From the NCBI RefSeq assembly GCF_030013595.1, contig NZ_CP122768.1: 64,000 bases of DNA; one strand, 5' to 3'. This DNA is from Escherichia coli (GTDB taxonomy: Bacteria; Pseudomonadota; Gammaproteobacteria; Enterobacterales; Enterobacteriaceae). Positions within the stretch are counted from its first letter, which is position 1. Each line of letters opens with the position of its first letter. The translations under genes were made by a program, and so were the position numbers. Of this stretch, positions 1 to 13,413 are shown piece by piece. The notes beneath the pieces are model-generated. The model ran no database searches. It was not told where the DNA came from and was given only the letters and a program-made list of their open reading frames with translations.

Positions 1-788
1 ACTTCGCCGAGCATGAACTGACTGCGCAATGCATAATGAAAGTAATATGGTCAATGGTTCTTTCCCATCTTAATGGAAAACGTCAATCACAAGAACGTAG
101 GGAACCGCTTGAGCTTTATAGAATTTACTTCTATGACTGTCCACCACTCGACATTCAAACACGCCTTCCACTTCCTGAGCCTGGCAATAAGACGCCTGGT
201 CGCAAGAATTTCAAACTCGAAAAATCATATATTCTGAGAACGGAGCTGCATGAAGAGTTAAGAAAAACTCGAAAAACAGCCTTAAGATTAGGGAATCTTG
301 TTGATAATAAGCGATGGCAACTAACTACATTCTCCCTTGATGCTCTGATGAAAGGAACGAAAAAATGGGATGAACTGACAAATGATGATTTTTACTATGA
401 CATCAAACAAAAACAAGTTGATATCAAGCTAGGGATGGATATCACGACTTTAGCTTATGAAAAACTTGTTGATGTAATTGTCCTTGTTGCTGGGGACTCA
501 GACTTTGTGCCTGCCGCCAAACACGCCAGAATTAAAGGTATTGATTTTATTCTTGATCCACTAAGACAGAATGTTACCCCATCACTGTCAGAGCACATTG
601 ATGGAGTTCAGTCATACAGCTTGATATCAGGACTTGCCGATGCTTTACATGTTGAGCCAGACCCGGCACCTGACTGGTGGGAAGATCGAAAAAAAGGCAA
701 GCCTAGAGGAAAAAACAATAGCGGTAAACGCAGGTATGGAAACACTCAAGCTGAGTCAGCAAAGAAACATCAAAGAAATAAACGATAA
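1..788 (+). CDS. NYN/LabA-like (PIN-type nuclease fold) domain protein with basic C-terminal tail; immunity-region accessory gene; possibly 5'-truncated by window edge (first ATG at 36, frame open to position 3)
   Basis: 250-aa ORF; motif VLVAGDSDFVPAAKHARIKGIDF typical of NYN/LabA domains; lies upstream of pL/nutL/N, same strand, followed by terminator. Confidence 0.55.
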   Translation, partial: FAEHELTAQCIMKVIWSMVLSHLNGKRQSQERREPLELYRIYFYDCPPLDIQTRLPLPEPGNKTPGRKNFKLEKSYILRTELHEELRKTRKTALRLGNLVDNKRWQLTTFSLDALMKGTKKWDELTNDDFYYDIKQKQVDIKLGMDITTLAYEKLVDVIVLVAGDSDFVPAAKHARIKGIDFILDPLRQNVTPSLSEHIDGVQSYSLISGLADALHVEPDPAPDWWEDRKKGKPRGKNNSGKRRYGNTQAESAKKHQRNKR

Positions 789-796
789 TCCCATCA

Positions 797-823
797 ACCC
801 GGCCACCGAGCCGGGTTTTCTTT
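797..823 (+). terminator. Rho-independent terminator after immunity-region ORF
   Basis: ACCCGG...CCGGGT 6-bp stem followed by TTTTCTTT. Confidence 0.5.
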
Positions 824-1008
824 GCCTCACGCCCCCACCTAAAGACACATAACCAAATGTATTTATTGAAAAATAAATAGATACAACTCACTAAACCACG
901 CAATTCTGATCTCTCCTTACATCGCCGAGGCGATACACCCACGCTAAAAAACAACACTATTAAATACAAAGCGTTATAAAAAATCACCCCATTTTAGAAC
1001 AAATTGTA

Positions 1009-1037
1009 TTGACCCAATAAAGTACATATCGTACTAT
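1009..1037 (+). promoter_or_regulatory. Candidate pL promoter (-35 TTGACC, 17-bp spacer, -10 TACTAT)
   Basis: Sigma70-like hexamers about 45 nt upstream of nutL boxA and about 190 nt upstream of N start. Confidence 0.35.
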
Positions 1038-1083
1038 TTAACCGTCAGCAGGACGCTGTAAGCCAAACGGAGCAGACTGGCAG

Positions 1084-1129
1084 GCTCTTTAAACAACGTC
1101 GAACACTCGACTACGTGGCTGAAAAGCCA
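1084..1129 (+). promoter_or_regulatory. nutL-like site: boxA (GCTCTTTAAACAA, 1084-1096) plus boxB-like hairpin (TGGCT-GAAA-AGCCA, 1116-1129)
   Basis: boxA nearly identical to the rrn/lambda boxA consensus; small GNRA-looped hairpin about 20 nt downstream, in the N leader. Confidence 0.45.
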
Positions 1130-1227
1130 GATCACCCAACCATATAAGCTGTGGGATGCAATGCCGAAGCAACCGTCTCAGGAGGAGCTTCGAGATTGCA
1201 TCGCCAAAGTTTATTCGGGAGGAATCT

Positions 1228-1500
1228 ATGTCCAGAAAAACAGAATTTAAAGGCACCGCAGCTTCTCGCCGTAGAGCTCGTCGTGCAAACCTGCAAAGTC
1301 AGGAGGCGATCAGCTCTGACAAGCTACACAGGCCAACCCCTTCACGAGTGGTCTTACAATGCAAACGCAAACCAGTAATGAGAGCAGAAGTAATAACACT
1401 GACAACGTTGACCAGAAAATATGAAGGCTCAACTTGTCTTCCAAATGTAGCCATTTACGCGGCAGGCTACAGGAAATCCAAACAGCTGACAGCAAGATGA
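1228..1500 (+). CDS. N: Antitermination protein N, non-lambda type (933W / P22 gp24-like)
   Basis: 90 aa; N-terminal arginine-rich motif (GTAASRRRARRANL); C-terminus ...CLPNVAIYAAGYRKSKQLTAR resembles recalled P22 gp24/933W N; GGAGG SD 5 nt upstream. Confidence 0.7.
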   Translation: MSRKTEFKGTAASRRRARRANLQSQEAISSDKLHRPTPSRVVLQCKRKPVMRAEVITLTTLTRKYEGSTCLPNVAIYAAGYRKSKQLTAR

Positions 1501-1558
1501 CTTGTGTTGGTCGCCAGAAAATGAAATTAGGCAGCAAACCACTTATTTGAGGTGAGAT

Positions 1559-1645
1559 ATGGAAGAAGAATTTGAAGAGTTCGAAGAGCATCCTCAGGAT
1601 GTGATGGAACAATACCAGGACTATCCGTATGACTACGACTATTGA
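1559..1645 (+). CDS. Small acidic ORF (28 aa, MEEEFEEFEEHPQDVMEQYQDYPYDYDY), lambda orf28-like
   Basis: ATG 1559 to TGA 1643-1645; position between N and ral. Confidence 0.35.
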   Translation: MEEEFEEFEEHPQDVMEQYQDYPYDYDY

Positions 1646-1829
1646 TACAAATCAATGGTGTGGACAATTCAAACGATGCAATGGATGCAAGCTGCAATCG
1701 GAATGCATGGTTAAGCCTGAAGAAATGTTTCCTGTAATGGAAGATGGGAAATATGTCGATAAATGGGCAATACGAACGACGGCAATGATTGCCAGAGAAC
1801 TTGGTAAACAGAACAACAAAGCTGCCTGA
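1629..1829 (+). CDS. ral: Ral (restriction alleviation)
   Basis: 66-aa ORF matching recalled lambda Ral length and position. Confidence 0.7.
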   Translation: MTTTIDTNQWCGQFKRCNGCKLQSECMVKPEEMFPVMEDGKYVDKWAIRTTAMIARELGKQNNKAA

Positions 1830-1965
1830 TAGTGGCCTTTATTTTTGGCATAAATAACAGAATAAACACTGCACTGTGTATTCATTCCAACGAGTGAATA
1901 CACGGAGCAATGTCGCTCGTAACTAAACAGGAGCCGACTTGTTCTGATTATTGGAAATCTTCTTT

Positions 1966-1992
1966 GCCCTCCAGTGTGAGGGCGATTTTTTA
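1966..1992 (+). terminator. Rho-independent terminator in pL operon
   Basis: GCCCTC-cagtgt-GAGGGC hairpin followed by T-run. Confidence 0.45.
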
Positions 1993-2011
1993 TCTATGAG
2001 GATATGAATAG

Positions 2012-2380
2012 ATGTCAAACATCAAAAAATACATCATTGATTACGACTGGAAAGCATCAATAGAAATTGAAATCGACCATGACTTAATGACAGAGGAAAA
2101 ACTTCACAAGATTAATAATTTCTGGTCAGACTCTGAATACCGACTCAATAAACACGGCTCTGTATTAAATGCTGTATTAATCATGCTGGCGCAACATGCT
2201 CTGCTTATAGCAATTTCAAGCGACTTAAATGCATATGGTGTTGTGTGTGAGTTCGACTGGAATGATGGAAATGGTCAGGAAGGATGGCCTACAATGGATG
2301 GTAGCGAAGGAATAAGAATTACCGATATCGATACATCAGGAATATTTGATTCAGATGATATGACTATCAAAGCCGCCTGA
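2012..2380 (+). CDS. ea10: Ea10-like early protein
   Basis: 122-aa ORF in lambda ea10 position and size. Confidence 0.65.
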   Translation: MSNIKKYIIDYDWKASIEIEIDHDLMTEEKLHKINNFWSDSEYRLNKHGSVLNAVLIMLAQHALLIAISSDLNAYGVVCEFDWNDGNGQEGWPTMDGSEGIRITDIDTSGIFDSDDMTIKAA

Positions 2381-2452
2381 GCGCGGCGTTACCGCATACC
2401 AATAACGCTTCACTCGAGGCGTTTTTCGTTATGTATAAATAAGGAGCACACC

Positions 2453-2617
2453 ATGCAATATGCCATTGCAGGGTGGCCTGTTGCTGGCTGCCCTTCCGAA
2501 TCTTTACTTGAACGAATCACCCGTAAATTACGTGACGGATGGAAACGCCTTATCGACATACTTAATCAGCCAGGAGTCCCAAAAAATGGATCAAACACTT
2601 ATGGCTATCCAGACTAA
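2453..2617 (+). CDS. cIII: CIII (FtsH/HflB inhibitor)
   Basis: 54 aa [54 protein letters not shown]; matches recalled lambda CIII. Confidence 0.85.
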   Translation: MQYAIAGWPVAGCPSESLLERITRKLRDGWKRLIDILNQPGVPKNGSNTYGYPD

Positions 2618-2729
2618 ATTCACTATCGCCACTTTTATTGGCGATGAAAAGATGTTTCGTGAAGCCGTCGACGCTTATAAAAAATGGATATTAATGCTGA
2701 AACTGAGATCAAGCAAAAGCATTCACTAA
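2586..2729 (+). CDS. kil: Kil (host-killing, FtsZ inhibitor)
   Basis: 47 aa, overlaps cIII 3' end as in lambda. Confidence 0.75.
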
Positions 2730-2804
2730 CCCCCTTTCCTGTTTTCCTAATCAGCCTGGCATTTCGCGGGCGCTATTTTCACAGCCATTTTCAGGAGTTC
2801 AGCC

Positions 2805-3101
2805 ATGAACGCTTATTACATTCAGGATCGTCTTGAGGCTCAGAGCTGGGCGCGTCACTACCAGCAGATCGCCCGTGAAGAGAAAGAGGCAGAACTGGCA
2901 GACGACATGGAAAAAGGCCTGCCCCAGCACCTGTTTGAATCGCTATGCATCGATCATTTGCAACGCCACGGGGCCAGCAAAAAAGCCATTACCCGTGCGT
3001 TTGATGACGATGTTGAGTTTCAGGAGCGCATGGCAGAACACATCCGGTACATGGTTGAAACCATTGCTCACCACCAAGTTGATATTGATTCAGAGGTATA
3101 A
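2805..3101 (+). CDS. gam: Gam (RecBCD inhibitor), short form
   Basis: 98 aa [21 protein letters not shown]...; AGGAG SD 7 nt upstream. Confidence 0.9.
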
Positions 3102-3106
3102 AACGG

Positions 3107-3892
3107 ATGAGTACAGCACTCGCAACGCTGGCAGGGAAGCTGGCTGAACGTGTCGGCATGGATTCTGTCGACCCACAGGAACTGATCACCACTCTTCGCC
3201 AGACGGCATTTAAAGGTGATGCCAGCGATGCGCAGTTCATCGCATTGTTGATCGTCGCCAACCAGTACGGCCTTAATCCGTGGACGAAAGAAATTTACGC
3301 CTTCCCTGATAAGCAGAACGGCATCGTTCCGGTGGTGGGCGTTGATGGCTGGTCCCGCATCATCAATGAAAACCAGCAGTTTGATGGCATGGACTTTGAG
3401 CAGGACAATGAATCCTGTACATGCCGGATTTACCGCAAGGACCGTAATCATCCGATCTGCGTTACCGAATGGATGGATGAATGCCGCCGCGAACCATTCA
3501 AAACTCGCGAAGGCAGAGAAATCACGGGGCCGTGGCAGTCGCATCCCAAACGGATGTTACGGCATAAAGCCATGATTCAGTGTGCCCGTCTGGCCTTCGG
3601 ATTTGCTGGTATCTATGACAAGGATGAAGCCGAGCGCATTGTCGAAAATACTGCATACACTGCAGAACGCCAGCCGGAACGCGACATCACTCCGGTTAAC
3701 GATGAAACCATGCAGGAGATTAACACTCTGCTGATCGCCCTGGATAAAACATGGGATGACGACTTATTGCCGCTCTGTTCCCAGATATTTCGCCGCGACA
3801 TTCGCGCATCGTCAGAACTGACACAGGCCGAAGCAGTGAAAGCTCTTGGATTCCTGAAACAGAAAGCCTCTGAACAGAAGGTGGCTGCATGA
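3107..3892 (+). CDS. bet: Bet (Red-beta single-strand annealing protein)
   Basis: 261 aa, matches recalled lambda Bet. Confidence 0.95.
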
Positions 3893-4569
3893 CACCGGAC
3901 ATTATCCTGCAGCGTACCGGGATCGACGTGAGAGCTGTCGAACAGGGGGATGATGCGTGGCACAAATTACGGCTCGGCGTCATCACCGCTTCAGAAGTTC
4001 ACAATGTGATAGCAAAACCCCGCTCCGGAAAGAAATGGCCTGACATGAAAATGTCCTACTTCCACACCCTGCTTGCCGAGGTTTGCACCGGTGTGGCTCC
4101 GGAAGTTAACGCTAAGGCGCTGGCCTGGGGAAAACAGTACGAGAACGACGCCAGAGCCCTCTTTGAGTTCACTTCCGGCGTGAATGTTACTGAATCCCCG
4201 ATCATCTATCGCGACGAAAGTATGCGCACCGCCTGCTCTCCCGATGGTTTATGCAGTGACGGCAACGGCCTTGAACTGAAATGCCCGTTTACCTCCCGGG
4301 ATTTCATGAAATTCCGGCTCGGTGGTTTCGAGGCCATAAAGTCGGCTTACATGGCCCAGGTGCAGTACAGCATGTGGGTGACGCGAAAAGATGCCTGGTA
4401 CTTTGCCAACTATGACCCACGAATGAAGCGTGAAGGCCTGCATTATGTCGTGGTTGAGCGGGATGAAAATTACATGGCGAGTTTTGACGAGATGGTGCCG
4501 GAGTTCATCGAAAAAATGGACGAGGCACTGGCTGAAATTGGTTTTGTATTTGGGGAGCAATGGCGATGA
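3889..4569 (+). CDS. exo: Exo (lambda exonuclease, Red-alpha)
   Basis: 226 aa, matches recalled lambda Exo; overlaps bet stop. Confidence 0.95.
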
Positions 4570-4748
4570 AGCATCCTCACGATAATATCCGGGTAGGTGC
4601 GATCACTTTCGTCTACTCCGTTACAAAGCGAGGCTGGGTATTTCCCGGCCTTTCTGTTACCCGAAATCCCCTGAAAGCACAGCGGCTGGCTGAGGAGATA
4701 AATAATAAACGGGGAGCTGTATGCACAAAGCATCTCCTGTTGAGTTAA
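4566..4748 (+). CDS. exo-xis region small protein, orf60a-like
   Basis: 60 aa from second in-frame Met; position immediately after exo. Confidence 0.45.
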
Positions 4749-4912
4749 GAACGAGCATTGAGATGGCACATAGCCTCGCTCAAATTGGAGTCAGGTTTGT
4801 GCCAATACCAGTAGAAACAGACGAAGAATTTCATACGTTAGCCGCATCCCTTTCACAAAAGCTGGAAATGATGGTGGCGAAAGCAGAAGCAGATGAGAGA
4901 GACCAGGTATGA
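4721..4912 (+). CDS. exo-xis region small protein, orf63-like
   Basis: 63-aa ORF. Confidence 0.5.
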   Translation: MHKASPVELRTSIEMAHSLAQIGVRFVPIPVETDEEFHTLAASLSQKLEMMVAKAEADERDQV

Positions 4913-4988
4913 CAACCACTGAATGCATTTTTCTGGCAGCGGGCTTCATATTCTGTGTGCTTATGCTTGCCGACATGGGACTTGTTCA

Positions 4989-5204
4989 ATGACACATCAG
5001 CAAGAAAACGCCCTTCGCAGTATTGCCCGTCAGGCTAATTCTGAAATCAAAAAAGCCAGACAGCAGTTTCCGGATAAAAACGTCGATGACATTTGCCGTA
5101 GCGTACTGAAGAAGCACCGCGAAACGGTAACGCTGATGGGATTCACACCGACTCATTTAAGCCTGGCGATCGGCATGTTAAACGGCGTCTTTAAGGAACG
5201 GTGA
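4989..5204 (+). CDS. exo-xis region small protein, orf61-like (start uncertain; frame open from 4923)
   Basis: ORF in expected position; start codon choice unresolved. Confidence 0.35.
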   Translation: MTHQQENALRSIARQANSEIKKARQQFPDKNVDDICRSVLKKHRETVTLMGFTPTHLSLAIGMLNGVFKER

Positions 5205-5302
5205 GCATGAAAAACAAAATCATCATGGAGCTACAGGCTCCTTTTTTATTATTCGCATTCACCCTCAAGCGTATTAACCAACAATTCAGGGATTAATGAA
5301 AG

Positions 5303-5524
5303 ATGGCAGACATCATTGATTCAGCATCAGAAATTGAAGAATTACAGCGCAACACAGCAATAAAAATGCGCCGCCTGAACCACCAGGCTATATCTGCCAC
5401 TCATTGTTGTGAGTGTGGCGATCCGATAGATGAACGAAGACGCTTGGCCGTTCAGGGTTGTCGGACTTGTGCAAGTTGCCAGGAGGATCTGGAACTTATC
5501 AGTAAACAGAGAGGTTCGAAGTGA
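5303..5524 (+). CDS. exo-xis region C4 zinc-finger protein (DksA/TraR-like), orf73-like
   Basis: 73 aa with CxxC...CxxC (CCECGDPIDERRRLAVQGCRTCASC). Confidence 0.6.
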   Translation: MADIIDSASEIEELQRNTAIKMRRLNHQAISATHCCECGDPIDERRRLAVQGCRTCASCQEDLELISKQRGSK

Positions 5525-6069
5525 GCGAAATTAACTCTCAGGCACTGCGTGAAGCGGCAGAGCAGGCAATGCATGACGACTGGGGATTTGACGCAGACCT
5601 TTTCCATGAATTGGTAACACCATCGATTGTGCTGGAACTGCTGGATGAACGGGAAAGAAACCAGCAATACATCAAACGCCGCGACCAGGAGAACGAGGAT
5701 ATTGCGCTAACAGTAGGGAAACTGCGTGTTGAGCTTGAAACAGCAAAATCAAAACTCAACGAGCAGCGTGAGTATTACGAAGGTGTTATCTCGGATGGGA
5801 GTAAGCGTATTGCTAAACTGGAAAGCAACGAAGTCCGTGAAGACGGAAACCAGTTTCTTGTTGTTCGCCATCCTGGGAAGACTCCTGTTATCAAGCACTG
5901 CACTGGTGACCTGGAAGAGTTTCTGCGGCAGTTAATCGAACAAGACCCGTTAGTAACTATCGACATCATTACGCATCGCTATTACGGGGTTGGAGGTCAA
6001 TGGGTTCAGGATGCAGGTGAGTATCTGCATATGATGTCTGACGCTGGCATTCGCATCAAAGGAGAGTGA
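5521..6069 (+). CDS. ea22: Ea22
   Basis: 182-aa ORF in lambda ea22 position and size. Confidence 0.75.
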   Translation: MSEINSQALREAAEQAMHDDWGFDADLFHELVTPSIVLELLDERERNQQYIKRRDQENEDIALTVGKLRVELETAKSKLNEQREYYEGVISDGSKRIAKLESNEVREDGNQFLVVRHPGKTPVIKHCTGDLEEFLRQLIEQDPLVTIDIITHRYYGVGGQWVQDAGEYLHMMSDAGIRIKGE

Positions 6070-6260
6070 GATCGGTTTTGTAAAAGATAACGCTTGTGAA
6101 AATGCTGAATTTCGCGTCGTCTTCACAGCGATGCCAGAGTCTGTAGTGTCAGATGATGACCGTACTCAAACATCGGGTTGAGTATTATCTTACTGTTTCT
6201 TTACATAAACATTGCTGATACCGTTTAGCTGAAACGACATACATTGCAAGGAGTTTATAA

Positions 6261-6542
6261 ATGAGTATCAATGAGTTAGAGTCTGAGCAAAAAGATTGGG
6301 CGTTATCAATGTTGTGCAGATCCGGTGTCTTGTCTCCATGCAGACATCACGAAGGTGTTTATGTAGATGAAGGTATAGATATAGAGTCGGCATACAAATA
6401 TTCCATGAAGGTTTATAAGTCTAATGAAGACAAATCCCCATTCTGCAATGTGCGAGAAATGACTGATACCGTGCAAAATTATTATCACGAGTACGGTGGA
6501 AACGATACTTGCCCTCTCTGTACAAAACATATAGATGATTAA
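6261..6542 (+). CDS. ea8.5: Ea8.5
   Basis: 93-aa Cys/His-rich ORF in lambda ea8.5 position and size. Confidence 0.75.
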   Translation: MSINELESEQKDWALSMLCRSGVLSPCRHHEGVYVDEGIDIESAYKYSMKVYKSNEDKSPFCNVREMTDTVQNYYHEYGGNDTCPLCTKHIDD

Positions 6543-6630
6543 ACCCAATATTACATAACAATCCTCGCACTCGCGGGGATTTATTTTATCTGAACTCGCT
6601 ACGGCGGGTTTTGTTTTATGGAGATGATAA

Positions 6631-6798
6631 ATGCACTTCCGAGTCACAGGAGAATGGAATGGAGAGCCATTCAACAGAGTTATCGAAGCGGAGAACATCA
6701 ACGACTGCTACGACCACTGGATGATATGGGCGCAGATAGCACATGCAGACATAACCAATATTCGAATTGAAGAACTGAAAGAACACCAAGCCGCCTGA
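6631..6798 (+). CDS. Small ORF (55 aa) between ea8.5 and xis
   Basis: ATG 6631 to TGA 6796-6798, followed by hairpin plus T-run; below the 60-aa cutoff of the ORF track. Confidence 0.4.
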   Translation: MHFRVTGEWNGEPFNRVIEAENINDCYDHWMIWAQIAHADITNIRIEELKEHQAA

Positions 6799-6813
6799 TG
6801 GCGGTTTTTTCTT
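6789..6813 (+). terminator. Rho-independent terminator upstream of xis
   Basis: CCGCC-tgat-GGCGG hairpin followed by TTTTTTCTT. Confidence 0.4.
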
Positions 6814-6837
6814 GCGTGTAATTGCGGAGACTTTGCG

Positions 6838-7056
6838 ATGTACTTGACACTTCAGGAGTGGAACGCTCGCCAGCGACGCCCAAGAAGCCTTGAAACAGTT
6901 CGTCGATGGGTGCGCGAATGCAGGATATTCCCTCCTCCGGTTAAGGATGGAAGAGAATATCTGTTCCACGAATCAGCGGTAAAGGTTGACTTAAATCGAC
7001 CAGTAACAGGTAGCCTTTTGAAGAGGATCAGAAATGGGAAGAAGGCGAAGTCATGA
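6838..7056 (+). CDS. xis: Excisionase Xis
   Basis: 72 aa MYLTLQEWNARQRRPRSLETVRRWVRECRIF...; matches recalled lambda Xis. Confidence 0.95.
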   Translation: MYLTLQEWNARQRRPRSLETVRRWVRECRIFPPPVKDGREYLFHESAVKVDLNRPVTGSLLKRIRNGKKAKS

Positions 7057-8104
7057 GCGCCGGGATTTACCCCCTAACCTTTATATAAGAAACAATGGAT
7101 ATTACTGCTACAGGGACCCAAGGACGGGTAAAGAGTTTGGATTAGGCAGAGACAGGCGAATCGCAATCACTGAAGCCATACAGGCCAACATTGAGTTATT
7201 TTCAGGACACAAACACAAGCCTCTGACAGCGAGAATCAACAGTGATAATTCCGTTACGTTACATTCATGGCTTGATCGCTACGAAAAAATCCTGGCCAGC
7301 AGAGGAATCAAGCAGAAGACACTCATAAATTACATGAGCAAAATTAAAGCAATAAGGAGGGGTCTGCCTGATGCTCCACTTGAAGACATCACCACAAAAG
7401 AAATTGCGGCAATGCTCAATGGATACATAGACGAGGGCAAGGCGGCGTCAGCCAAGTTAATCAGATCAACACTGAGCGATGCATTCCGAGAGGCAATAGC
7501 TGAAGGCCATATAACAACAAACCCTGTCGCTGCCACTCGCGCAGCAAAATCAGAGGTAAGGAGATCAAGACTTACGGCTGACGAATACCTGAAAATTTAT
7601 CAAGCAGCAGAATCATCACCATGTTGGCTCAGACTTGCAATGGAACTGGCTGTTGTTACCGGGCAACGAGTTGGTGATTTATGCGAAATGAAGTGGTCTG
7701 ATATCGTAGATGGATATCTTTATGTCGAGCAAAGCAAAACAGGCGTAAAAATTGCCATCCCAACAACATTGCATGTTGATGCTCTCGGGATATCAATGAA
7801 GGAAACACTTGATAAATGCAAAGAGATTCTTGGCGGAGAAACCATAATTGCATCTACTCGTCGTGAACCGCTTTCATCCGGCACAGTATCAAGGTATTTT
7901 ATGCGCGCACGAAAAGCATCAGGTCTTTCCTTCGAAGGGGATCCGCCTACCTTTCACGAGTTGCGCAGTTTGTCTGCAAGACTCTATGAGAAGCAGATAA
8001 GCGATAAGTTTGCTCAACATCTTCTCGGGCATAAGTCGGACACCATGGCATCACAGTATCGTGATGACAGAGGCAGGGAGTGGGACAAAATTGAAATCAA
8101 ATAA
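7034..8104 (+). CDS. int: Integrase Int (tyrosine recombinase)
   Basis: 356 aa MGRRRSHERRDLPPNLYIRNNGYYCYRDPRTGKEF...; matches recalled lambda Int; overlaps xis. Confidence 0.97.
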   Translation: MGRRRSHERRDLPPNLYIRNNGYYCYRDPRTGKEFGLGRDRRIAITEAIQANIELFSGHKHKPLTARINSDNSVTLHSWLDRYEKILASRGIKQKTLINYMSKIKAIRRGLPDAPLEDITTKEIAAMLNGYIDEGKAASAKLIRSTLSDAFREAIAEGHITTNPVAATRAAKSEVRRSRLTADEYLKIYQAAESSPCWLRLAMELAVVTGQRVGDLCEMKWSDIVDGYLYVEQSKTGVKIAIPTTLHVDALGISMKETLDKCKEILGGETIIASTRREPLSSGTVSRYFMRARKASGLSFEGDPPTFHELRSLSARLYEKQISDKFAQHLLGHKSDTMASQYRDDRGREWDKIEIK

Positions 8105-8200
8105 TGATTTTATTTTGACTGATAGTGACCTGTTCGTTGCAACAAATTGATAAGCAATGCTTTTTTATAATGCCAACTTAGTATAAAAAAGCAGGCTTCA
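8105..8200 (-). other. attL: attL (P' arm plus 15-bp core GCTTTTTTATACTAA at 8178-8192, read on minus strand, plus B arm)
   Basis: Core TTAGTATAAAAAAGC on + strand; lambda P' arm sequence immediately 3' of int; bacterial B-arm bases continue into ybhC leader. Confidence 0.9.
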
Positions 8201-8238
8201 ACGGATTCATTTTTCTATTTCATAGCCCGGAGCAACCT

Positions 8239-9522
8239 GTGAACACATTTTCAGTTTCCCGTCTGGCGCTGGCATTGGCTTTTGGCGTGACGCTGACCGC
8301 CTGTAGCTCAACACCGCCCGATCAACGTCCTTCTGATCAAACCGCGCCTGGTACCTCTTCTCGCCCGATTCTGTCGGCAAAAGAAGCGCAGAATTTCGAT
8401 GCTCAACACTATTTTGCATCCCTGACACCAGGTGCGGCAGCGTGGAATCCTTCCCCGATTACCCTGCCTGCGCAACCTGACTTTGTTGTCGGCCCGGCGG
8501 GTACTCAAGGTGTAACGCATACCACGATTCAGGCGGCGGTAGATGCGGCAATTATCAAGCGCACCAACAAGCGCCAGTATATTGCCGTGATGCCTGGTGA
8601 GTATCAGGGAACGGTGTATGTCCCTGCCGCTCCGGGTGGAATTACTCTGTACGGTACAGGTGAAAAACCGATTGATGTGAAGATTGGGCTTTCCCTTGAT
8701 GGTGGCATGAGCCCTGCCGACTGGCGTCACGACGTCAACCCGCGCGGCAAATATATGCCAGGTAAACCGGCGTGGTATATGTACGATAGCTGCCAGAGCA
8801 AACGCAGCGACAGTATCGGCGTTCTCTGCTCTGCGGTCTTCTGGTCACAAAACAATGGCCTGCAACTGCAAAACCTGACCATCGAAAACACGCTGGGCGA
8901 TAGCGTAGATGCGGGTAACCATCCGGCGGTGGCACTGCGTACTGATGGCGACAAAGTGCAGATCAATAACGTCAACATTCTCGGTCGTCAGAACACCTTC
9001 TTTGTCACCAACAGCGGTGTGCAGAACCGTCTGGAAACCAACCGTCAGCCGCGTACTCTGGTGACCAACAGTTACATTGAAGGGGATGTGGATATCGTTT
9101 CTGGTCGCGGCGCAGTGGTGTTCGATAACACCGAATTCCGCGTGGTGAACTCACGTACTCAGCAAGAAGCGTATGTGTTTGCACCGGCAACACTGTCTAA
9201 CATCTATTACGGTTTCCTCGCCGTAAACAGCCGTTTCAATGCTTCCGGTGATGGCGTGGCGCAACTGGGCCGCTCGCTGGATGTTGATGCCAATACCAAC
9301 GGTCAGGTGGTGATCCGTGATAGCGCCATCAACGAAGGTTTTAACACAGCCAAACCGTGGGCTGATGCGGTGATCTCTAATCGTCCGTTTGCGGGTAACA
9401 CCGGCAGCGTTGATGATAACGACGAAGTACAGCGTAATCTGAATGACACTAACTACAACCGCATGTGGGAATACAATAACCGCGGCGTGGGTAGCAAAGT
9501 GGTTGCAGAGGCGAAGAAGTAA
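8239..9522 (+). CDS. ybhC: YbhC, outer-membrane lipoprotein of the pectinesterase fold (acyl-CoA thioesterase)
   Basis: 427 aa, lipoprotein signal (LTACSS); GTG start; attB-flanking position. Confidence 0.9.
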   Translation: MNTFSVSRLALALAFGVTLTACSSTPPDQRPSDQTAPGTSSRPILSAKEAQNFDAQHYFASLTPGAAAWNPSPITLPAQPDFVVGPAGTQGVTHTTIQAAVDAAIIKRTNKRQYIAVMPGEYQGTVYVPAAPGGITLYGTGEKPIDVKIGLSLDGGMSPADWRHDVNPRGKYMPGKPAWYMYDSCQSKRSDSIGVLCSAVFWSQNNGLQLQNLTIENTLGDSVDAGNHPAVALRTDGDKVQINNVNILGRQNTFFVTNSGVQNRLETNRQPRTLVTNSYIEGDVDIVSGRGAVVFDNTEFRVVNSRTQQEAYVFAPATLSNIYYGFLAVNSRFNASGDGVAQLGRSLDVDANTNGQVVIRDSAINEGFNTAKPWADAVISNRPFAGNTGSVDDNDEVQRNLNDTNYNRMWEYNNRGVGSKVVAEAKK

Positions 9523-9540: not shown

Positions 9541-10309
<769 letters not shown>

Positions 10310-10413
10310 ATCAGCATACTTGTCCTTAGCCTTCTGCAGTGACAGCTGGTAGTACAGCGTGCTTCTGGCCAGCCCTGCAGCCTTTAACAGGTCAGACTGG
10401 CAGTGTCCGCACC

Positions 10414-10944
10414 TCAGGCTCCGGATGACTTTCGTTTTTTCTCCAGCTCCTGGCGCTTTTTTTCCAGGAGATGCTCCTGCATGGCTTTCAGATATGCATT
10501 TTCTGCGCGAAGATAACGCAGCTCATTCTTCATCTCTTCCGGCGTCATGTTTGCCTCGTTTTCATGGGTATCATCAGAACGGGTCATGCTTTTCTCCTTC
10601 CTGCGCCTGATAAAGGCCTCATTACCAGATTTGCGGTAGCCTTTTATCCAGTTTTTAACCGTGTTGTGGCTGGGAATGTTAAACCGGGCAGCTACCCGGG
10701 GTAGAGACTCAGAATGCCCGAGAGCATAAAGAACCACGCAAAGTTTATCTTCAGGAGAATAGCTACGCTTGTGTCTGCAATCCAGTGCACGAGGACCGTG
10801 AAGAAGAAAAAGATTAATCCAGTGTGAGAGGCTGGTGTGAGAAAGTTGAAAGAGTTTTGCCGTAGAAATGATGCCTGCATGACCAGCCAGGTAATGATTT
10901 ACAGCGGCAAGTTTTACTTCAAATGAATGTTTCATAAACTGCAC
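10414..10944 (-). CDS. IS transposase OrfA (HTH plus leucine zipper)
   Basis: 176 aa; ends just after slippery heptamer A AAA AAG (+ strand T-run 10457-10463). Confidence 0.8.
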   Translation of the reverse strand: MQFMKHSFEVKLAAVNHYLAGHAGIISTAKLFQLSHTSLSHWINLFLLHGPRALDCRHKRSYSPEDKLCVVLYALGHSESLPRVAARFNIPSHNTVKNWIKGYRKSGNEAFIRRRKEKSMTRSDDTHENEANMTPEEMKNELRYLRAENAYLKAMQEHLLEKKRQELEKKRKSSGA

Positions 10945-11098: not shown

Positions 11099-13360
11099 TT
11101 ACATCTGACGGTTTTTATTGAAGTTAATCAAACTACCCGCCTTGATAATCTCGCGCTCTTCGGCCGTCAGGCTTTCCATGTAAAGCGTAATTTCCGTTAC
11201 CGGCGCATCTTCATGGATCACATAACCTTTAAACGTCGTACCCGGATTATCCAGCGCTGCTTTAATGCCAGGGATGTAAATGTAATCCCCCACTTCAAAC
11301 GTTGGTGCTTCCGCCATCTGCAGCGGTAACATCCCCCAGTTGATGACGTTAGAACGGTAGCGTTTAGTCGCGTACTCCTCGGCAATATTCGCCAGACCGC
11401 CAATCACACGCTGGCAGCTCGCCGCCTGCTCACGCGCAGAACCATCGCCTGGTTTCACCGCATAGACCATGCTGCCAATTTCAGTTTGCAGCGGATCAAT
11501 ATGCTCCTGACCAGCAATCTGCTTAATGCGCGCAAACACCTCTGTCAGCTCGCTGACATTCCCCGCCAGACGCTGATTTTCCAGCTCAGCAGTCGCTTTA
11601 CTTCTGCCAACATAACCTGGATCGCGGCGTGACAGGGTAAACTCCGCCAGACCAATCGGATTTGAACGATAAGAAGAGGTTTCACCGGAAGGGATCAGTT
11701 CGTCGGTGGTGGTCACTTCGTCGAGGATCTTCGAGCACACTTTGAGGACGATATTGTCAGTTAGCGCCCCCAATTCTGGCCAGTCTTTTATGTTCGGTCC
11801 GTAAATCAATGGTTGCTGGGTCGCCCCTTTCACAAAGCCCTGATAAACACGGTTTTTATACGGAGTTACATCGAAGGCGTACTCCGGTACGTTGTCCCAG
11901 CAATCAAGTTCGCTGGCAGAGGTTAAATAGCCACCGTTTGCCGCAGTCGCAGCGATAGAACGAGCGTCCATCAACGCCACCGCTGACATCTGCCCATTGG
12001 CTGGCTTAGAGCCTTCGCGGTTCGGGAAGTTACGCGTGGTGTGGCGAATACTCAAACCGTTGTTGATTGGCGTATCGCCCGCGCCAAAGCATGGGCCGCA
12101 GAACGCGGTTCTGATGATTGCGCCTGCGCCAATCAAATCTGCTACCACGCCTTTTTTGGCTAAATCCATAAACACCGGCTGTGATGACGGGTAAACCGCT
12201 AACGAGAAGGTGTCATTGCCACAGGATTGACCGCGCAGCGCATTCGCCGCCGCGATGACGTTTTCATAGTTACCGCCAGAACAGCCCGCGATAATCCCCT
12301 GCTGCACTTTCAGGCGACCATTTTCCACTTTATCCAGCAGCGAGAGTTTGGCTTTACCGTGCGCCACGCGTTCGGACTCAATTTCAATCTCACGCAGAAT
12401 ATCGGTCAGGTTCTGGTTCAGCGTGTCGATTTCATATACGTTGCTCGGGTGGAACGGCAGCGCAATCATTGGTTTGATGGCGCTTAAATCAACGCTGATG
12501 CAGCCATCGTAGTATGCCATCGGTTGAGGGTTAAGCTGGCAGTAATCCTGGCCGCGTCCGTGCAGCGCCAGCCAGTTATGGACTTCTTCATCGGTTTGCC
12601 AGACAGAACTTAAACAGGTCGTTTCAGTGGTCATAACGTCAACGCTGTTACGGAAATCGGTAGAGAGCGCAGCAACACCGGGACCTACGAATTCCATCAC
12701 TTTGTTTTTGACGTAGCCGTTTTTGAACACGGCACCGATGATAGCCAGCGCCACATCCTGTGGCCCCACATACGGCGCAGGCTTTCCGGTCAAATGCACC
12801 GCAACAACTCCCGGATAGTCGATATCCCATGTGTCATTAAGCAGCTGTTTTACCAACTCACCGCCACCCTCACCGACTGCCATTGTCCCTAATGCACCGT
12901 AACGGGTGTGGCTGTCTGACCCGAGGATCATTTTGCCGCCGCCTGCCATCATCTCACGCATATATTGATGGATGACCGCAATATGCGGAGGCACAAAAAT
13001 ACCGCCATAACGCTGAGCCGCCGATAAACCAAAAACATGGTCATCACCGTTAATGGTGCCGCCGACGGCGCAAAGTGAGTTATGGCAGTTGGTCAGCACA
13101 TACGGCAGCGGGAAACGTTCCATACCGGACGCTTTAGCGGTCTGTACAATACCAACAAAGGTAATATCGTGAGAGGCTAATGAATCAAACTTAATTTTAA
13201 GTTTATCCATATTTCCGGACGTATTATGAGAAGAGAGAATAGACCAGGCAATAGTGCCTTTTTTTGCTTCTTCTTTTTTAATTTCGCCGGTGAAATGTTC
13301 TTCGGCAATTATTTCGTTATTACTGGCGAGAAACACGCCTTTTTCAGATAACTTGATCAT
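11099..13360 (-). CDS. ybhJ: YbhJ, aconitase-family hydratase
   Basis: 753 aa from second Met (MIKLSEKG); aconitase family Fe-S hydratase fold. Confidence 0.85.
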
Positions 13361-13413
13361 CAAATGCTCCAGATATCTGCGCACCGTGAAGTGCGCAGAA
13401 AGATAATAAATGG

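Follow-up and report, generated by a model that had tools for sequence, protein, structure and literature searches.

The nutR site of phage H-19B is known to contain two hairpins, where N occupies boxB and NusA the spacer (PMC3526286), and the N protein of phage lambda binds NusA through its residues 34-47 (PMC2724277). The latter source also gives the reference sequences of the rrn boxA, UGCUCUUUA, and the lambda boxA, CGCUCUUA. In the Shiga-toxin phage VT2-Sakai, which turns out to be the nearest described phage for the N gene discussed here, nutL, pL and the operators had already been annotated by the depositors of the sequence (AP000422).

The window analysed here is a stretch of 64,000 nucleotides from an Escherichia coli genome (GCF_030013595.1, contig NZ_CP122768.1). 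Its first 8.2 kb probably constitute the early-left arm of a lambdoid prophage, a modular mosaic integrated at att-lambda, in which an oL/pL-nutL-N cassette of the VT2-Sakai type (approximately 915-1534) and a lambda-type block that starts with orf28/ral and runs through int up to the att core belong to one prophage. A probability of about 0.9 is assigned to this explanation as a whole, the anatomy together with the antitermination mechanism proposed below.

Organization of the early left arm

The features of the arm are listed in Table 1. The NYN-domain gene at its left end (Pfam PF01936, 6e-9; PHROG 5783, 6e-102) is 98-99.8% identical to a 285-aa gene located between cI and pL in phages 2B8 and E212. 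A linker (792-915) that contains the first terminator is common to lambda (88%), Sakai (94%) and 933W (76%). The site homologous to this terminator is labelled 'rho independent terminator for pRM transcript' in AP000422 and the homologue of pL 'putative major leftward promoter'; of the oL sites, two are identical to features of that record and one has a single mismatch. The genes cro and cI, the nutR site and the remaining prophage lie to the left of or outside the window; nutR data are taken from relatives, and the prophage's own nutR, left of window position 1, would be expected to carry UCGCUGAAAAGCGA.

Table 1. Features of the early-left arm (positions in the window)
Feature	Position	Strand	Basis or remark
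NYN-domain gene, where lambda has rexA/rexB	1-788	+	start cut by window edge; listed ORF 36-788
Intrinsic terminator, end of cI/immunity transcript	796-827	+	terminator scan
Three oL operator sites	962-978, 995-1011, 1020-1036	+	homology to VT2-Sakai annotation AP000422
pL early leftward promoter, TTGACC-17 nt-TACTAT	1009-1037	+	promoter scan
nutL boxA GGCTCTTTAAACAAC, rrn-like CUUUA form	1083-1097	+	sequence
Spacer hairpin GTCGA-ACAC-TCGAC, between boxA and boxB	1098-1111	+	fold
nutL boxB UGGCU-GAAA-AGCCA, 5-bp stem, GNRA tetraloop 1121-1124	1116-1129	+	fold
Long N-leader hairpin	1144-1214	+	-39.8 kcal/mol, z -5.2, none of 200 shuffles as stable
N antiterminator, 90 aa, VT2-Sakai type	1228-1500	+	PF25694 2e-32; first ORF after pL
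Untranslated relic of phage-21/lambda-type N C-terminus	1500-1550	+	+1 frame reads TCVGRQKMKLGSKPLI and then a stop
Shared linker, overlap of lambda-like and Sakai-like homologies, joint inside	1534-1564	+	homology limits
orf28	1559-1645	+	28/28 aa identical to lambda
ral	1629-1829	+	65/66 aa identical to lambda; Pfam Ral 1.7e-48
Terminator-like hairpin	1821-1836	+	terminator scan; downstream of N
Intrinsic terminator-like hairpin and T-run	1964-1995	+	terminator scan; upstream of ea10, in lambda-identical block; hairpin 1964-1985
Early-left genes, lambda-type	2012-8104	+	ORF list; 97-100% identity to lambda per gene
att core GCTTTTTTATACTAA, prophage end	8178-8192	-	one exact match against 0 expected at random

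Lambda homology is absent from 915-1534 at the nucleotide level, begins at 1534 and stops at 8192; in between, the window is 98.5% identical to lambda DNA in an alignment of 6,660 bases interrupted by 3 single-base indels, collinear down to the 15-bp att core, and the proteins from orf28 through int share 97-100% of their residues with their lambda counterparts, gene by gene. The initial annotation had judged ral through int to be close to lambda, and the block is far from the substantial divergence that would have spoken against this. No other phage among those compared matches without interruption from 1534 as far as the att core. The genes downstream of ral are ordered ea10, cIII, kil, gam (98 aa), bet, exo, orf60a, orf63, orf61 (93-aa form), a 73-aa ORF, ea22, ea8.5, p35, xis and int; the 73-aa ORF matches a gene annotated in lambda imm21 as a DksA/TraR zinc finger, a label transferred from that annotation, and the segment from ea22 to ea8.5 is 100% identical to lambda. 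A 427-aa ORF beyond the att core is presumably the host gene ybhC.

The nutL site and the N antiterminator

BoxA and then boxB follow pL and precede N, at a distance of 46-92 nt from the -10 hexamer. The boxA core GCUCUUUA matches the rrn form and not the lambda form, and the same boxA is present in the nutL sites of 2B8, Sakai and POCJ13. Across 77 IMG/VR loci the stem of the spacer hairpin is kept and its loop is variable, and the nutR sites of relatives have a different hairpin, GGAC-AUUC-GUCC, at this position. The boxB hairpin folds with -7.1 kcal/mol (z -2.95, 1 of 200 shuffles folding as well; z -3.04 together with the spacer hairpin), and its GAAA loop, closed by a U-A Watson-Crick pair in the predicted fold, is a GNRA tetraloop, compared with the 5-nt loop of lambda nutL boxB when folded in the same manner; it is one A shorter than the lambda nutR boxB. 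This boxB, loop included, is identical in 77 of 80 related IMG/VR loci, a search by N-family alignment that covered only N copies 97-100% identical and so provides module counts with almost no additional covariation. In POCJ13 the nutL loop is GCAA, still a GNRA sequence, and a compensatory G-C to C-G change distinguishes the nutR boxB shared by Sakai, 2B8 and POCJ13, UCGCU-GAAA-AGCGA. This is the one compensatory pair among 4 distinct sequences; 93 of 500 shuffles reach the score, and the covariation count alone is not statistically persuasive. No curated Rfam family matched the nut region and N leader (all E>1, far below gathering thresholds).

The 90-aa N protein (PHROG 271 'anti-termination protein N-like', 6e-26), small, basic and first in the pL operon, has an arginine-rich motif (ARM) near its N-terminus, S13-RRRARRA-20 (SRRRARRA), and ends in ...LPNVAIYAAGYRKSKQLTAR. 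It scores 112 bits over residues 1-90 against PF25694 (N_peptide), for which the curated gathering threshold is 27.9 bits with full length required; P22 gp24 scores 152 bits and 933W N 57.5, whereas lambda N (16.4) and phage 21 N (22.4) are both below the cutoff. Conversely, PF11438 (N36, the lambda N type), to which lambda N itself scores 92 bits, had no match to the window N at E<=0.1. A tblastn search with the window N at E<=10 did not find lambda N, and a PDB sequence search found no relatives at E<=10. The protein is identical (100%) to the N proteins that phages E212 and EC.P3 encode and 97.8% identical to that of VT2-Sakai (88 of 90 aa), followed in BLASTP by POCJ13 (83%), 933W (42.5%, with 37 gap positions) and P22 gp24 (37.6%). 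Lambda N is 35% identical in the ARM/NusA-site region only, its residues 3-60 aligning with 11-61 of the window N and thus spanning the ARM and the NusA-binding stretch. N is itself an intragenic mosaic, its lambda-like ARM and NusA-site region being followed by a C-terminus of the P22/933W type.

Several predictions of the initial annotation can be judged at this point. The rrn-like boxA agrees with the core sequence, the GAAA tetraloop in place of the lambda pentaloop was recovered by folding the nut RNA, and the best alignment of N is not with lambda N. All listed elements were found where the annotation had put them, including the N-terminal ARM and the C-terminus as it had been quoted. 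The assignment of N to the 933W/P22 gp24 type is correct as to the C-terminus (75% identity to P22 over the C-terminal 24 aa; 21 of 21 aa to 933W) and the Pfam family, but has to be refined: VT2-Sakai rather than 933W is the closest phage described, and the boxB UGGCUGAAAAGCCA is also that of VT2-Sakai, with a GAAA loop where the 933W/H-19B subtype has GACAA.

Codon differences in N are 8 synonymous to 2 nonsynonymous in comparison with Sakai and 31 to 15 in comparison with POCJ13; purifying selection acts on the N frame. An antisense ORF of 100 aa (1310-1612) was rejected because stop codons interrupt it in POCJ13.

The start codon of N and the RNA element that it binds could both be read otherwise. 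Some annotations begin N at ATG 1156, from which a 114-aa frame is open, and RefSeq NC_000902 gives N as 345 nt; this would place the ARM inside the protein and make 1156-1227 coding sequence instead of leader RNA structure. This start was rejected as very improbable on the strength of the leader hairpin that covers it and of the codon differences, which over the upstream 72 nt amount to 1 synonymous and 5 nonsynonymous in comparison with POCJ13, unlike the ratio inside N. POCJ13 has GTG in place of the upstream ATG, GGGAGG is found 6 nt before ATG 1228, the PF25694 alignment begins at residue 1 of the 90-aa form, and the same 273-nt CDS is annotated in POCJ13 and in the original AP000422 record. 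As for the RNA, when the 65-nt nutL is folded in full, the structure of minimum energy has boxA paired with the 3′ strand of boxB and retains only the first hairpin; therefore, the two local hairpins rest on conservation, not on global energy. Neely and Friedman reportedly described alternative NUT RNA structures for H-19B in 2000. That N binds the first hairpin (1098-1111) or a long-range fold is nevertheless unlikely, because the loop of the first hairpin varies (ACAC, ACTC, CTC, ATC; AUUC in nutR) while that of the second is invariant or remains GNRA, and because the second hairpin of 933W is exactly the P22 boxB sequence GCGCUGACAAAGCGC. Footprinting of H-19B likewise placed N on boxB, and NusA and Rho on the spacer (PMC3526286).

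With the 90-aa N and the GAAA hairpin as its probable target, a mechanism can be modelled on the lambda, P22 and H-19B systems, from which the binding and antitermination steps are extrapolated onto the observed anatomy and homologies. Upon derepression, pL would transcribe nutL; boxA would recruit NusB/NusE, the spacer hairpin region would bind NusA, and the ARM of N would bind the boxB tetraloop. N is predicted to contact NusA through a central region weakly similar to lambda N 34-47 and RNA polymerase through the P22/933W-type C-terminus. The modified polymerase would then pass the terminators in the lambda-type block, among them the hairpin at 1964-1995 that we take to be the equivalent of lambda tL1 and that would be a target of the N-modified enzyme, so that ral, cIII, gam/bet/exo and xis/int could be expressed. 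If specificity resides only in the ARM-boxB pair, both members of which are within the cassette, any downstream arm may be attached without loss of function.

The recombination joint and its occurrence elsewhere

The joint falls within 1498-1564, immediately 3′ to the stop codon of N, in a linker common to lambda, 21, P22, 933W and Sakai. Homology to lambda and to P22 begins at 1534 and homology to lambda-imm21 at 1498, whereas homology to Sakai extends until 1564 and to 933W until 1561; breakpoints in other phages are at 1498 and 1530-1531. The initial annotation had placed the joint between N and orf28/ral, and it is indeed found between 1500 and 1559. The relic in the +1 frame was compared with the C-termini of phage 21 N, ...TCVGRQKIKLGSKPLI, and lambda N, ...TCSGRQKIKGKSIPLI. 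Conservation of the linker across lambdoid phages makes the cassette swappable by homologous recombination between different phages; a lambda-like phage gaining the Sakai cassette and the reverse exchange fit the data equally. P22 was rejected as a donor of N at the DNA level, its nucleotide match being confined to the ral region (84%) and short patches. Phage phi80 is irrelevant to the joint, since its N has no BLASTP match to the window N and its nutL is unrelated; the phi80 matches are limited to exo (76%) and a 29-nt terminator stretch.

The N-orf28-ral junction is also present in phage 2B8, in 126 of 5,426 complete E. coli genomes and in 24 of 80 IMG/VR loci. A 341-bp junction probe (1380-1720) is found in full at 97-99% identity in 2B8 and the 126 genomes, and in phage E212 at 99.3% up to 1675, or 87% of the probe. 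None of the 5,426 genomes covers all of an 8.3-kb query (1-8300), the best covering 795-8300, so that the set lacks the genome analysed here or the combination of NYN gene, N and lambda arm. The prophage is an ordinary mosaic; as its exact arrangement has been sequenced many times before and is present in databases, the feature adds nothing new.

The frequency of several lambdoid prophages with shared segments in E. coli genomes (the 8.3-kb query matches a median of 2 places per genome) and the location of the joint in a repeat-like conserved linker might suggest that assembly or scaffolding fused two prophages of one genome, a reading of negligible probability that is already effectively refuted by the identical junction in the independently isolated phage 2B8, the complete genomes and, up to 1675, E212. 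It is appreciably more plausible, although still doubtful, that the prophage is a genome of the 2B8 (Alegriavirus) or Stx-phage kind sharing or having acquired a lambda-type early-left arm, rather than a lambda relative with a foreign N. Phage 2B8, an Alegriavirus and not a Lambdavirus, matches the window at 98.2% over 1-5536, including the NYN gene, nutL and N, and at 98.4% over 6561-8192, and VT2-Sakai and 933W carry the region from ea10 to orf63 at approximately 97.5% identity, which makes the arm a common property of many lambdoid phages. On the other hand, lambda alone is continuous from 1534 to the att core, a stretch that takes in orf28-ral, which Sakai and 933W lack, ea22-ea8.5, which 2B8 lacks, and int/att; this reading differs from that of a Sakai-type cassette joined to a lambda-type block only in naming and in direction.

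Significance

The locus is an instance of textbook lambdoid mosaicism, the ARM-boxB pair moving in one cassette with conserved linkers at its borders, and its importance goes little beyond annotation: the N type should be labelled VT2-Sakai-like, not lambda or 933W, and N should be annotated as the 90-aa form from 1228 instead of the 114-aa form. A boxB with a GNRA tetraloop and its cognate ARM are nonetheless widespread, occurring among Stx phages and in the prophages that many E. coli genomes carry, and may have experimental value. The nutR sites of 933W and Sakai differ by almost nothing but one loop base (GACAA versus GAAA), with matching differences in the ARM, which would make them a clean natural specificity switch. 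As a speculative and rather unlikely proposal drawn from sequence comparison, the Sakai-type N and boxB could be a natural fourth class of ARM-boxB specificity, with a four-base GNRA loop, no extruded base and a lambda-like ARM without an equivalent of Trp18. The extruded nucleotide of the boxB loop has been implicated in NusA coupling in lambda; if the proposal is true and the pair is truly unstudied, the extruded nucleotide of lambda and P22 boxB would be dispensable for a working N system, and the pair would be an orthogonal peptide-RNA tether. The searchable literature, which does not extend to the VT2-Sa and H-19B papers of subscription journals of about 1999-2000, contains no functional study of a natural tetraloop boxB or of VT2-Sakai N, an absence that is weak evidence.

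Comparison with known phages

Among the phages that come close to the prophage arm are 2B8, E212 and ev099. In 2B8, the NYN gene, pL, nutL, N and orf28-ral through exo follow the same order, but the lambda ea22-ea8.5 segment (5536-6561) is missing. E212 is 99.8% identical over 1-1675, yet it is a P22-like podovirus (Lederbergvirus) with unrelated recombination genes downstream.

Lambda shares with the window the logic of pL, nutL, N and terminators, the NusA-site stretch of N and a similar ARM (TRRRERRA..Q.Q versus SRRRARRA..Q.Q in the window). Unlike lambda, the window has no sieB between N and orf28, the C-terminal half of its N is unrelated, and a glutamate aligns with Trp18; its nutL differs by the rrn-type CUUUA boxA, by the extra hairpin in a spacer of approximately 18 nt, and by a boxB with another stem sequence and a 4-nt loop in place of GAAGA/GAAAA (5 nt). 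P22 has an rrn-like boxA and, in gp24, a protein of the same PF25694 family, but its ARM is another one, its boxB is GCGCU-GACAA-AGCGC, the spacer hairpin is missing, and sieB follows gene 24.

The nut sites of 933W and H-19B resemble that of the window in the succession of boxA, spacer hairpin, UACG spacer sequence and boxB, and in nutR the spacer hairpin and its flanks are nearly identical. The N protein of 933W has the same pattern in its N-terminal 40 or so residues (M-S/T-R-K/R-T-E/Q-FKG), is identical in its last 21 and is followed by the same relic, but it is a 127-aa protein of the H-19B type with a different C-terminal half of the ARM (RRRERLKAKALANG), and its boxB loop is the P22-like pentaloop. 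VT2-Sakai (Sp5) and the related Stx1/Stx2 phages grouped with it for N, nutL and pL/oL (Stx2 II, 1717, 2851 and the PA series) are nearest in the cassette. VT2-Sakai has orf20/orf19 after N instead of orf28-ral, another gene in the rex position and a spacer-hairpin loop one base shorter; over 792-1564 it is 94.4% identical to the window, with the same boxA and boxB, two of the three operators, an N protein that differs at 2 of 90 residues, and the 21-type relic after the stop codon.

Organization of the early-left arm

The window opens with 8.2 kb of lambdoid prophage sequence, its early-left arm, which is the part covered by this analysis; cI, cro, nutR and the late genes of the prophage lie to the left of window position 1. 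The 73-aa ORF on the 3′ side of orf61 matches a gene that the lambda imm21 annotation labels DksA/TraR zinc-finger. There is a single copy of the lambda att core (GCTTTTTTATACTAA), beside a host ORF that is presumably ybhC, so the prophage sits at the att-lambda core with int adjoining the host junction. Beyond this ORF comes an insertion sequence of the IS3 family, in which two ORFs match NCBIfam NF033516, followed by a host 761-aa ORF; a simple repeat search of the element found no clear terminal inverted repeats.

Features of the early-left arm and adjoining host sequence
Feature	Position	Strand	Remark
NYN-domain gene	1-788	+	start cut by window edge
Intrinsic terminator	796-827	+	
Three operator-like sites and pL	962-1037	+	
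nutL	1083-1129	+	
Long leader hairpin	1144-1214	+	
N	1228-1500	+	
N relic	1500-1550	+	directly 3′ of N stop
Genes 3′ of N			orf28, ral, ea10, cIII, kil, gam, bet, exo, orf60a, orf63, orf61
Genes 3′ of orf61			73-aa ORF, ea22, ea8.5, xis, int
att core	8178-8192		single occurrence
427-aa ORF	8239-9522		putative ybhC, 3′ of att core
IS3-family element	9587-10944	-	
761-aa ORF	11099-13384		host

The NYN-domain gene (Pfam PF01936, PHROG 5783) occupies the rexA/rexB position of lambda, between cI and the pre-pL terminator. A full 285-aa copy is present in phages 2B8, ev099 and E212, and the gene is absent from all of 80 IMG/VR loci that encode the same N. PADLOC gives only weak matches (HEC-09, 2e-4; NYN, 1.4e-3). 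The gene may be prophage-encoded exclusion or defence cargo.

A non-lambda cassette joined to a lambda-like arm

The initial annotation, made from the sequence alone, described lambda-like genes from ral through int joined to a non-lambda N and nutL. The lambda-like part is confirmed by a single BLASTN alignment of window 1534-8192 with lambda (NC_001416, 34381-27724; 98.5% identity over 6,660 columns) and by the residues identical to lambda in Orf28 (28/28), Ral (65/66), Ea10 (119/122), CIII (54/54), Kil (46/47), Bet (260/261), Exo (221/226), Ea22 (182/182), Ea8.5 (93/93), Xis (71/72) and Int (353/356). The alignment contains three single-base indels, two of which cause frameshifts against the lambda reference: an additional T at 2788 disrupts the 138-aa "long Gam" frame and leaves the 98-aa Gam (2805-3101) intact, and a 1-nt difference at 5048 makes orf61 a 93-aa ORF (4923-5204) instead of the 61 aa of lambda, a form also annotated in 933W and Sakai (ZapA-like). 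Within this block, 1.2 kb from ea22 to ea8.5 (5534-6734) is 100% identical to lambda while its flanks are 96.5-98% identical, and 5536-6561 has no homologous sequence in phage 2B8, which matches the window at approximately 98% elsewhere; the segment is a second mosaic patch, apparently a recent one.

In the cassette comprising oL/pL, nutL and N (915-1534), BLAST comparison detected no lambda homology. The Shiga-toxin phage VT2-Sakai is 94.4% identical over 792-1564, phage 2B8 is 95.4% identical, and phage E212 is 100% identical over 800-1560. The recombination joint falls between N and orf28/ral, as initially proposed, where a series of homology boundaries is nested in the interval from the N stop to the start of orf28. 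Homology begins at 1534 for lambda and P22 and at 1498 for lambda-imm21, spans 1435-1561 for 933W, stops at 1564 for Sakai and runs on to 1675 for E212 (99.8%). With a junction probe from the 3′ end of N to ral (1380-1720), breakpoints in other phages are equivalent to 1435, 1498 and 1530-1531. All of these phages share a 30-bp linker (1534-1564), which provides a substrate for homologous exchange. On the other flank, after the cargo gene in the rex position, is a conserved linker (792-915; lambda 88%, Sakai 94%, 933W 76%). Unlike lambda, the window has no sieB between N and orf28, as in phage 21.

The N protein and its start site

The position of the leader hairpin is, we assume, that of the RNase III-sensitive structure in the lambda N leader. 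Whether N is a 114-aa protein starting at the equivalent of ATG 1156, as annotated in RefSeq NC_000902, or a 90-aa protein starting at ATG 1228 bears on this leader. ATG 1156 lies within the hairpin (-39.8 kcal/mol, z -5.2) and is replaced by GTG in phage POCJ13. In comparison with POCJ13, the 72-nt stretch that separates the starts contains one synonymous and five nonsynonymous differences, as against 31:15 inside N. A GGGAGG motif precedes ATG 1228 by 6 nt, and a 273-nt N gene is annotated in AP000422 (VT2-Sakai) and POCJ13. The evidence favours ATG 1228.

The 90-aa N ends in LPNVAIYAAGYRKSKQLTAR, the C-terminus quoted in the initial annotation, which called the protein 933W/P22 gp24-type. 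Membership in the P22 gp24 family stands: N scores 112 bits against a cutoff of 27.9 in Pfam PF25694 (N_peptide), a family built around P22 gp24, while neither lambda N nor phage 21 N reaches this cutoff and PF11438 (N36), to which lambda N belongs, has no match to the window N. The name 933W does not stand, since 933W carries an H-19B-type N; the correct subtype is VT2-Sakai. BLASTP identities are 97.8% to VT2-Sakai, 83% to POCJ13, 42.5% to 933W N (127 aa), 37.6% to P22 gp24 and 35% to lambda N over 52-63 residues; phage 21 N aligns only in the region of the arginine-rich motif (ARM), and no part of phi80 N aligns.

By these alignments N itself is a mosaic. Residues 11-61 align with lambda N 3-60, spanning the ARM (SRRRARRA..Q.Q, compared with TRRRERRA..Q.Q in lambda) and the counterpart of lambda N 34-47, which binds NusA AR1 (PMC2724277). 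The last 21 residues are those of 933W N, and the final 24 share 75% identity with P22 gp24. In the relic beyond the stop, the +1 frame reads TCVGRQKMKLGSKPLI*, the C-terminal sequence with which phage 21 N ends (TCVGRQKIKLGSKPLI) and one similar to the lambda N terminus (TCSGRQKIKGKSIPLI). VT2-Sakai and 933W carry the same relic after their N genes, which suggests insertion of the P22-type C-terminus in front of the 3′ end of an older N. On the simplest reading, a 21/lambda-type N gene would have lost its 3′ end to a segment that encodes a P22-type C-terminus and brings its own stop, leaving the old end as an untranslated fossil.

The nutL site

From 5′ to 3′, nutL consists of boxA (GGCUCUUUAAACAAC), a spacer hairpin (GUCGA-ACAC-UCGAC), UACG and boxB (UGGCU-GAAA-AGCCA). 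The boxA core, GCUCUUUA, is that of rrn (UGCUCUUUA) and not that of lambda (CGCUCUUA) (PMC2724277), and boxB is predicted to form a 5-bp stem with a four-base loop, compared with five bases in lambda nutL; both features had been recognized initially. Relative to lambda nutR boxB, the stem differs and the loop is one A shorter.

The boxB fold has a z-score of -2.95 (-3.04 with the spacer hairpin), and formal covariation is weak (one compensatory pair among four distinct sequences, equalled by 93 of 500 shuffles). The assignment is supported mainly by conservation and homology of position. The nutR sites of Sakai, 2B8 and POCJ13 have the same layout (boxA, GGAC-AUUC-GUCC, UACG, UCGCU-GAAA-AGCGA), with a different spacer hairpin and a single compensatory change, G-C to C-G, in the stem of boxB; POCJ13 nutL has the loop GCAA, retaining GNRA; and boxB is identical in 77 of 80 IMG/VR loci encoding the same N, where variation is confined to the spacer-hairpin loop. 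In the global minimum-energy fold of 65 nt (1078-1142, +), boxA (GCUC/UUUA) pairs with the 3′ strand of boxB, replacing the boxB hairpin. If biologically relevant, this modelled alternative could compete with N binding until NusB/E occupies boxA.

Proposed mechanism and modularity

The anatomy is observed, and the following mechanism is modelled on lambda, P22 and H-19B. Upon derepression, pL would transcribe nutL; the consensus boxA would be bound by NusB/NusE, the spacer by NusA and the GNRA loop of boxB by the ARM of N. The middle of N would contact NusA and its P22/933W-type C-terminus would contact RNA polymerase, which, so modified, would read through terminator-like hairpins (1821-1836, 1964-1985) and beyond to express the lambda-type recombination and int/xis genes. 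Specificity would reside in the ARM-boxB pair. Because both members lie within one cassette, the cassette should be combinable with any early-left arm. The genes on the 3′ side of the same N are orf28-ral in 24 of 80 loci (as in 2B8 and the window), Sakai orf20/19 in 11 of 80, or others, and the same N precedes other genes in E212, a P22-like phage; these arrangements show that the cassette combines with different arms.

Comparison with known phages

The literature search turned up no study of Sakai-type N function or of a naturally occurring boxB with a four-base GNRA loop, the older VT2-Sa/H-19B literature being outside its reach; function may be the one unexplored aspect of the prophage. 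In H-19B, whose nutR has two hairpins, the footprint of N falls on boxB and that of NusA/Rho on the spacer (PMC3526286). The second nut hairpin of 933W is exactly the P22 boxB, GCGCUGACAAAGCGC. The 933W and Sakai nutR sites differ almost solely by one loop base (GACAA versus GAAA), and the ARMs differ accordingly, which, judged from sequence, looks like a clean natural specificity switch. In HK630, N (HK630 stretch 2145-2575) is a third combination, in which an ARM of its own is joined to a 21-like middle and the C-terminus is 933W/P22-like. The loop of the HK630 boxB (CCCGC-CGAAAU-GCGGG) comprises six bases, with GAAA at its core, indicating that loop geometry is quite diverse among lambdoid phages.

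Overall, the initial observation is confirmed and its interpretation supported, with the subtype amended to VT2-Sakai. The promoter, operators, nutL and N of the cassette are annotated in AP000422, and the junction probe is matched by phage 2B8 (full coverage, 97.4% identity) and covered to at least 80% in 126 of 5,426 complete E. coli genomes (best identity 98.8%). Both the arrangement and its parts are therefore already known, and the prophage is a routine example of lambdoid mosaicism.
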